Assembly (NCBI GenBank): GCA_964016885.1
Contig: OZ024751.1
Span: forward strand, 23,436,001 to 23,500,000
Source: Eledone cirrhosa
Lineage: Eukaryota
Direction of reading: 5' to 3'
DNA: 64,000 nucleotides
Both the position numbers and the translations under genes were made by a program. The notes under the pieces are model-generated. The model was not told the DNA's origin, did no database searches, and worked only from the letters and a program-made list of their open reading frames with translations. How positions within the stretch are numbered: the stretch's first letter is position 1; each line of letters begins with the position of its first letter. Below are positions 33,630 to 34,686 of the stretch, one piece after another.

Positions 33630-34686
33630 CTTGTCTAATGCCATGTGCGTTTTTCACCGCTAGTTGACTCCTCTGCCGCCAGGAAAAAACTCGTTGATAA
33701 CGTAAACCTCCGTTCCACTTGCTCTAGTAGGCTTTTATATTTATATGTGAGCTGATAGAGTACAGTCTAAGGATTTACAGAAACCCATGAAGCTAGATTT
33801 AACACCTTTCTAGTGGGTCCGGGTATGATTTTACATTCATTTAAATTATTGACGTATTGTTTTATTGATATTTTTTATCTGTTTGGCCCGAATCTTCCTT
33901 TATCGATTTTAAATCGTATGGTTGATTGTAGACTTGTTCTATATGTGACGGTATTTTAACGATAGTTATAGCTCTGATTCATCTGAATTATTGAGCCCTC
34001 TGCCGCTCATATCGAATTTCGTTTATCGTGAACTCGTGCGCCGATTTTTCGATACTCGATCTTTCTAATATATTTAGCTCTGGACATAGCTATCCACCAG
34101 TTAATTTTATTGCTCATTTTTTGTCGATTCTATTGAGTGATGAATAGCTTTTGTTTTATTTTAACATGTCTATTGAGCACTCTAATTCGATATGTGTATT
34201 TCCACATTCACTCGAATTGTTTTCGCGGATATAGGGGTCATCTCCCTTGTCTAATGCCATGTGCGTTTTTCACCGCTAGTTGACTCCTCTGCCGCCAGGA
34301 AAAAACTCGTTGATAACGTAAACCTCCGTTCCACTTGCTCTAGTAGGCTTTTATATTTATATGTGAGCTGATAGAGTACAGTCTAAGGATTTACAGAAAC
34401 CCATGAAGCTAGATTTAACACCTTTCTAGTGGGTCCGGGTATGATTTTACATTCATTTAAATTATTGACGTATTGTTTTATTGATATTTTTTATCTGTTT
34501 GGCCCGAATCTTCCTTTATCGATTTTAAATCGTATGGTTGATTGTAGACTTGTTCTATATGTGACGGTATTTTAACGATAGTTATAGCTCTGATTCATCT
34601 GAATTATTGAGCCCTCTGCCGCTCATATCGAATTTCGTTTATCGTGAACTCGTGCGCCGATTTTTCGATACTCGATCTTTCTAATA
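33630..34686 (+). mobile_element. Tandem non-coding repeat in (TA)n: 616-bp monomer x1.7, one HHR-like motif per monomer (family K)
   Basis: cttgtctaatgccatgtgcg at 33630 and 34246; the copies look identical by eye. Confidence 0.85.
33745..33836 (+). ncRNA. Hammerhead-like motif with extended core CUGAUAGA (copy 1; copy 2 at 34361-34452)
   Basis: atgtgag CTGATAGA gta cagtctaaggatt tac a GAAA ccca..ctaga/tctag..tggg TC cgggtatgat tttacat; stem I bulged. Confidence 0.55.

Follow-up and report, generated by a model that had tools for sequence, protein, structure and literature searches.

Introduction

The closest described systems to the locus analysed here are the non-LTR retrozymes of animals and the Penelope-like elements. 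A partial tandem layout has been described for Penelope-like elements (PMC3846280), and, according to the available text of Craig 2021, insertion of Neptune and Naiad elements is biased toward (TA)n; the Naiads carry no hammerheads there, yet they target (TA)n and form partial tandems (Craig 2021). Whether tandem elements need hammerhead cleavage in order to spread is a question already raised in the Penelope literature, as far as the accessible portions of it extend. For instance, eight of nine predicted retrozyme dimers of Xenopus showed no cleavage in the accessible part of a recent report (Li et al. 2026, 10.64898/2026.07.22.740005), and an anole element was inserted in vitro with a mutated hammerhead, cleavage not being required (PMC11167929, available portions).

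With regard to the catalytic core, a natural hammerhead with an insertion after A6 had low activity, and the insertion was expected to disturb a core contact; in the accessible text of the same study, hits with core changes were rejected unless their activity had been measured (Perreault et al. 2011, PMC3088659). The element described below combines a tandem architecture of the retrozyme and Penelope kind with a hammerhead-like motif that departs from the consensus.

Architecture of the Tandem Element

The window, by which the whole 64,000-nucleotide stretch of Eledone cirrhosa DNA is meant, is AT-rich and dense in microsatellites, and it contains short interspersed repeats that we take to resemble octopus repeats. 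Self-comparison of the window reveals an exact 616-nt period, in which the 444 nt at 33630–34073 recur at 34246–34689 with 100% identity, and 172 nt of the unit are present once only. The element consists of 1.7 head-to-tail units with a (TA)9 tract on its left and an (AT)n tract on its right (Table 1), just as the preliminary description had it in reporting a 616-bp tandem of 1.7 apparently identical monomers with TA flanks; a third copy of the unit is found nowhere else in the 64-kb window. Microhomology between the junctions and the internal sequence of the element amounts to six bases at the right end and is absent from the left end.

The 616-nt unit is non-coding, the longest stop-to-stop frame of the repeat being 62 aa. 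The window contains no tRNA gene, and a bacterial promoter scan of the sequence stayed at chance level. When rotated, the 616-nt monomer adopts a more stable predicted fold than 20 of 20 shuffles (z −3.0). The polarity assigned to the element is inferred from the hammerhead-like motif together with the depth profile of sequencing run X1, which is described in the next section.

Two sets of features from the described systems are thus recognizable: the non-coding head-to-tail unit of low G+C that characterizes non-LTR retrozymes, and the partial tandem of a full unit plus a truncated copy that characterizes Penelope-like derivatives, the latter accompanied, at this one locus, by (TA)n insertion as for Neptune and Naiad.

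Table 1. Coordinates of the tandem element, of the hammerhead-like motif as drawn, and of the predicted competing hairpin (window positions).
Feature	Position	Strand	Remarks
Left (TA)9 tract	33612..33629	.	Probably belongs to the target of insertion
Upstream partial copy, 441 nt	33630..34070	+	5′-truncated if the + strand corresponds to the RNA
Competing hairpin	33721..33761	+	33721–33726 pairs with 33756–33761; predicted to lock the 3′ half of the core strand
Helix I region	33741..33836	+	Single core-adjacent pair 33751:33820, a loop, then 6 weak pairs
Core 5′ strand, CUGAUAGA	33752..33759 (copy 2: 34368–34375)	+	8 nt, one base over CUGANGA
Helix II as drawn	33760..33778	+	3 pairs from G10.1-C11.1 and 4 further pairs, separated by a bulged C, with a 4-nt loop; pairing predicted with a probability near 0
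Extra A33779, then GAAA (33780–33783)	33779..33783 (copy 2: 34395–34399)	+	Second core insertion, between C11.1 and G12
Helix III and GUC	33783..33819	+	5 pairs, 5-nt bulge, 5 pairs, 11-nt loop
Full 616-nt unit	34071..34686	+	36.5% G+C, T-rich (246/616)
Right (AT)n tract	34684..34702	.	First 6 bases are the unit's own continuation (microhomology); likely priming site

The Family in Public Sequencing Data

Words of the stretch occur in 17 public runs, 11 of which contain half or more of them, and these 11 runs carry eight organism labels and derive from seven studies. Contigs or reads were compared with the rotated monomer (33900–34515) for 4 of the 24 listed runs, namely X1, X12, X14, and X18. 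In run X1, all 30 bins of the unit are covered by 563 contigs, of which 190 are identical to the monomer at 99% or above, 172 at 95–99%, 139 at 90–95%, and 62 below 90%. The backbone contigs of this run reach depths of 7,323 (34045–34139), 6,500 (34155–34269), and 7,448 over the rotation cut; these depths have no single-copy control and come from a run of unrecorded kind that may itself be the source of the window, and a summed depth is not equal to copy number. The multi-copy character of non-LTR retrozymes is therefore also found here (563 contigs at a depth of 6,500–7,448 in X1, with no single-copy control), and the 616-nt family is abundant and young, its abundance being read from that same uncontrolled depth. 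The earlier view of a young retrozyme-like element accords with the identical copies, the partial tandem in (TA)n, and the 190 of 563 contigs with at least 99% identity.

Certain features of X1 bear on where the copies end. The summed depth falls fivefold at 34068, from 179,173 to 36,036, and 34045, the start of the first backbone contig, is a single base away from the branch of a 31-letter graph that would arise if many copies exit at 34074; together, the drop and the contig start fit a shared end near 34070, which is the right end of the window copy. Two X1 contigs span both equivalents of the element ends, with short sides of 26 and 24 letters that lie below the 31-letter bridge threshold; taken as they stand, these contigs would mean that most molecules continue head to tail, though both fall below that threshold. 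A joint in the X1 contigs that goes back 616 letters was rejected as a biological junction, as it is only a product of the rotation cut.

Ten substitutions at 5% or above are listed across the unit in X1, three of which fall within the motif (C34383T, A34418C, and C34421T); all three fit the structure and none is two-sided, one of them converting a C-G pair of helix II to U-G and the other two lying in loop III. No core indel or substitution is listed at 5% or above in X1, and for this reason both core insertions look like the family majority; the probability of zero core variants by chance is 0.81, which gives no evidence of selection.

No RNA run is listed among those that contain words of the stretch, which counts neither for nor against. 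Runs X12 and X14 each yielded one contig, with one and zero differences and depths of 3.5 and 2.2, respectively; the X14 contig is 158 nt long and comes from a run guessed to be RNA, and it was not accepted as expression. The Hi-C run X18 gave 0 matches among 12.8 million reads, a result that has no control stretch and is marked as no test. As a separate observation, words of the 616-nt element occur in runs X2–X17 under 14 organism labels. The many organism labels are most simply accounted for by carry-over, and the element may serve as a marker of cross-sample carry-over, with two low-share runs showing trace depth.

The Hammerhead-like Motif

One hammerhead-like motif is present per unit, in both units, with CTGATAGA at 33752 and 34368 and predicted cut sites after 33819 and, in copy 2, after 34435. 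The preliminary description was accurate on the cut sites, as GTC ends at 33819 and 34435, which are 616 apart; helix III has 5+5 pairs. All consensus letters stand in order in the motif, together with a possible G10.1-C11.1 pair and GUC, and the departures in the core are insertions only; the A15.1-U16.1 pair (A33783-U33818) and the NUH triplet (GUC, 33817–33819) are likewise present.

When compared with a type I hammerhead, helix III conforms, with its 5+5 pairs forming in most of the longer folds, and three defining consensus features fail. The contiguous 7-nt core C3 U4 G5 A6 N7 G8 A9 is replaced by 8 nt; G12 A13 A14 A15.1 does not directly follow helix II, as A33779 stands between C33778 and G33780; and a stable helix I adjoining the core is replaced by one pair and then a loop. 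The outer pairs of helix I can be drawn in two ways (33745–33750 with 33831–33836, or 33741–33746 with 33823–33828), such that a 10-nt bulge or a 4×2 loop lies beyond G33751-C33820, the 4×2 loop being better by 2.2 kcal/mol. Non-LTR retrozymes carry a complete type I hammerhead in consecutive units, and here the motif stands in both units but off consensus; a full hammerhead with a 7-nt core was found nowhere in the window. With three defining consensus features failed, the motif should not be filed as a confirmed hammerhead.

The preliminary description had counted one extra nucleotide outside the consensus. The 8-nt core holds, whereas the second insertion, A33779, and the one-pair helix I had been missed; similarly, the core is indeed off CUGANGA, yet an insertion after A6, and hence an 8-nt core, has a published precedent in the accessible text of Perreault et al. 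2011 (PMC3088659). Several remedies for the departures were tried and rejected. Alternative core registers (U3-A8, G3-C8, and a shifted G8) were misfits, both by eye and in a minimal-hammerhead scan; splicing out an intron up to the AG that precedes C3, in the style of D. virilis, gave at most two helix I pairs over 17 GT sites; and, by reasoning, a dimeric fold would not help helix I.

How readily such a motif arises by chance depends on how it is defined. A 32-nt probe over the core and helix II has two matches in the window and none in 100 shuffles, and a descriptor fitted to the motif, which makes for a circular test, matches 3 of 5000 dinucleotide shuffles. When up to two insertions only are allowed, 58 of 6000 shuffles match, or 5 of 6000 when G10.1-C11.1 is also required. 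When any two core edits are allowed, with type I and type III topologies and both strands counted, matches rise to 190 of 1500 and 553 of 4000 shuffles (13–14%), and they fall to 16 of 4000 when arms as stable as the real ones are added, the stricter filters having been picked after the motif was known. The reverse strand of the real unit contains one weak two-edit chance match.

Searches of curated and environmental collections gave no relatives. Rfam returned no ribozyme family in 32000–36500, in the whole window, or in 33630–34300, and a hammerhead match was absent even at E 10, which is a weak test in that the four minimal hammerheads of the window were likewise missed at the gathering score. 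A pattern scan of viral contigs gave 56 matches, 0 of 56 being similar to the unit at E 0.01; five of the 56 survive a loose filter on helix III and appear to be chance matches in coding sequence. A metagenome pattern scan gave three matches, none of them similar beyond the pattern. Overall, the motif is probably hammerhead-derived, a judgement held with clearly more than even confidence, and chance likeness is a live rival.

Folding Predictions

Relative to the best predicted fold, the hammerhead fold is less stable by 11–24 kcal/mol. Pairing probability is 0.00 for helix II and for the core-adjacent pair of helix I in nine of nine folded stretches, and the inner five pairs of helix III range from 0.02 to 0.83 depending on the stretch folded. 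The competing hairpin upstream (Table 1) has a probability of 0.99 in four of four nascent-length folds starting at 33630; in the predictions, helix II does not form even when this hairpin is removed.

Natural hammerheads are often missing from the lowest-energy fold of their RNA. Moreover, nearest-neighbour folding takes no account of tertiary contacts, and it was run here without a positive control. On both grounds, the folding result lowers the expectation of activity but does not exclude it. The motif is expected to cleave itself slowly, if at all, and the known core chemistry together with folding suggests that the motif is not a fast monomer-releasing ribozyme. The arithmetic of the earlier statement, in which cutting at both sites frees an exact monomer, is correct, the sites being 616 nt apart, but the folding predictions argue against fast cleavage.

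Neighbouring Elements in the Window

The end of a Penelope-type frame lies at 28289–28795 (−), about 5 kb to the left of the element, with a C-X4-C-xx-C finger and a GIY-YIG-like motif. This putative endonuclease fragment has two relatives at 41–42% identity among 30 candidates and no significant match in Pfam or PDB; the Penelope-type label draws on motifs described in the available portions of Craig et al. 2021 and on our interpretation of them. Candidate helpers of the right kind therefore exist in the genome, and no sequence link between the 616-nt unit and an autonomous element or pseudo-LTR was found within the 64-kb window.

Four minimal hammerheads with a 7-nt core occur in the window. 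The one at 28058 (−), downstream of the Penelope-type frame, carries one base more after A9 and has six pairs in helix II, with related copies at 23006 (−) and 55702 (+); a second kind, at 48312 (−), has a canonical core, four pairs in helix II, and a short palindrome after its GAAA.

Other repeats were observed in the window. A separate TA-flanked family, roughly 190 nt long and with a long hairpin at its end, is represented at 33506–33611 (+), 35704–35894 (−), 61976 (+), and 39408 (−); its hairpin arms differ between copies and are still complementary by eye. The copy at 33506–33611 has lost most of its hairpin, and the 616-nt element sits inside its TA tail. Just upstream of the element, a 97-nt repeat occurs at 32688–32784 and 33248–33344 (96% identity, 560 bp apart). 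Furthermore, 42700–43626 is a 466-bp two-copy tandem, AC/AT-rich and of 98% identity, in which scans of the window gave no hammerhead match.

Proposed Explanation and Rival Readings

The explanation that we favour, with confidence that only just exceeds even, is that of an abundant non-coding 616-nt repeat, likely copied by Penelope machinery into a TA microsatellite, that carries a likely hammerhead-derived but weakened motif. In this scheme, a multimeric or circular RNA of the + strand would be bound by a Neptune/Naiad-type reverse transcriptase-endonuclease, and the nicked (TA)n target would prime at the AU-rich point near 34070/34686. Copying would then run for 1.7 units from near 34686 and end at 33630, which would leave a full unit and an upstream 5′-truncated copy, and the family could spread as uncleaved multimers. 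Copying of the opposite polarity is possible, since microhomology has also been described at 5′ junctions (PMC3846280, accessible text). By analogy with the Xenopus dimers, the anole element, and the Naiads, hammerhead cleavage may not be needed for the spread of such a family.

A different reading keeps the repeat and discards the ribozyme: the unit would be a real Penelope-dependent repeat or a young satellite, resembling a hammerhead by chance and forming tandems without a ribozyme as in the Naiads. The frequency of any-two-edit matches in shuffles (13–14%), the weak match on the real reverse strand, the three departures from consensus, and the lack of support from Rfam all speak for it, as do the (TA)n-targeting, partially tandem Naiads without hammerheads in the accessible text of Craig 2021 and the absence of relatives from the viral and metagenome collections. 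However, shuffles seldom attain the arm stability of the real motif (16 of 4000), and the retention of all consensus letters with insertions only is likewise infrequent (58 of 6000); this reading is regarded as doubtful, though it deserves serious consideration.

Alternatively, the motif may be a working hammerhead variant that tolerates both insertions and releases 616-nt monomers that circularise, as do coral and mussel retrozymes, perhaps with help from a protein or from pairing between helix II (33764–33767) and GAUU (33827–33830). The presence of a single motif in each unit, the 616-nt spacing of the cut sites, the compact fold of the unit, and the lack of any core variant at 5% or above in a young, abundant family are all in keeping with such activity. 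Precedents from the accessible portions of the literature can be added: mussel retrozymes, which lack the usual contacts between loops, cleave at a rate near 0.1 per min (PMC7229834), the Penelope hammerhead of Drosophila virilis has a helix I of two pairs (PMC4209133), and protein had to be present for the anole Penelope hammerhead to cut (PMC11167929). Against these stand the co-occurrence of two core insertions, when A6a alone gave low activity in the available text of PMC3088659, a core strand that an upstream hairpin, transcribed earlier, is predicted to lock, and a predicted helix II probability near zero, and the loop pairing with GAUU is a by-eye proposal; a working variant is considered unlikely. 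Its strongest form, an amplifying animal retrozyme that cuts efficiently with both extra bases and a single helix I pair and produces abundant 616-nt circular RNA, is slightly less likely again. If efficient double-insertion cutting were true, standard descriptors would miss a whole class.

It is far less probable that a horizontally spreading or extrachromosomal circular agent, common to many hosts, has integrated here. Such an agent would account for the eight organism labels and seven studies among the 11 runs with half or more of the words and for the near-identical contigs of X12 and X14, but the depths of those contigs (3.5 and 2.2) are as expected if an abundant repeat was carried over, almost none of the words occur in other runs of labels B, E, and G, and the Hi-C run had no matching read, a result marked as no test for want of a control stretch. 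Lastly, a local duplication or assembly artefact of a single-copy stretch, for which the 100% identity of the two copies and the lack of another in 64 kb would speak, is largely refuted and highly improbable; an assembly artefact is also one of the refuting cases named in the preliminary description. Contigs of X1 cover every part of the unit at great depth and with many variants, the 172 nt that are single in the window among them, and 11 runs contain half or more of the words.

Whether the motif cuts has consequences in either direction. If it does, the natural hammerhead core is widened, and a double insertion fixed in a successful family would show the flexibility of the active site; searches built on CUGANGA and GAAA would then undercount the ribozymes of animal genomes. 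If the motif does not cut, the family offers a clean natural case on whether tandem Penelope elements need hammerhead cleavage to spread.

Comparison with Known Systems

The literature searched contains no report of the 616-nt family, of an insertion between C11.1 and G12, or of both insertions in an abundant animal family; supplements and figures, or Lunse et al. 2017, may contain such variants. The nearest natural counterpart of the core is the A6a hammerhead, which likewise has one extra base after A6 in the accessible text of Perreault et al. 2011 (PMC3088659). In contrast, the pattern here, which may differ from the published one, is CUGA-U-A-GA, accompanied by a second insertion and set in an animal repeat family.

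The non-LTR retrozymes of animals, as described in the available portions of two reports (PMC7229834; Li et al. 2026), likewise have a non-coding head-to-tail unit with a G+C content under 45%, a single hammerhead-like motif of type I in each unit, an abundant family, and a compact predicted fold. At 616 nt, the present unit falls within the 51–972 bp range of Li et al. 2026 (10.64898/2026.07.22.740005, accessible text) and is longer than the 170–400 nt circles in the accessible text of Cervera and de la Pena 2020 (PMC7229834). Unlike those retrozymes, this element is known from DNA alone, its core bears two insertions, its helix I has one pair, and its helix III is long (10 pairs, as compared with one to two pairs).

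According to the accessible text of Cervera and De la Pena 2014 (PMC4209133), the hammerheads of Penelope-like elements have the same type I topology and are likewise set in partial tandems. Within the same text, the short helix I has a precedent in the two pairs of D. virilis, and the long helix III has one in fungal and protist Penelope-like elements. The extra base of the Penelope-like hammerheads usually falls between A9 and G10.1, whereas the insertions seen here separate A6 from G8 and C11.1 from G12, and, by comparison with the Penelope-like elements described there, the 616-nt unit lacks a reverse transcriptase frame. The architecture is that of a non-LTR retrozyme or non-autonomous Penelope derivative.
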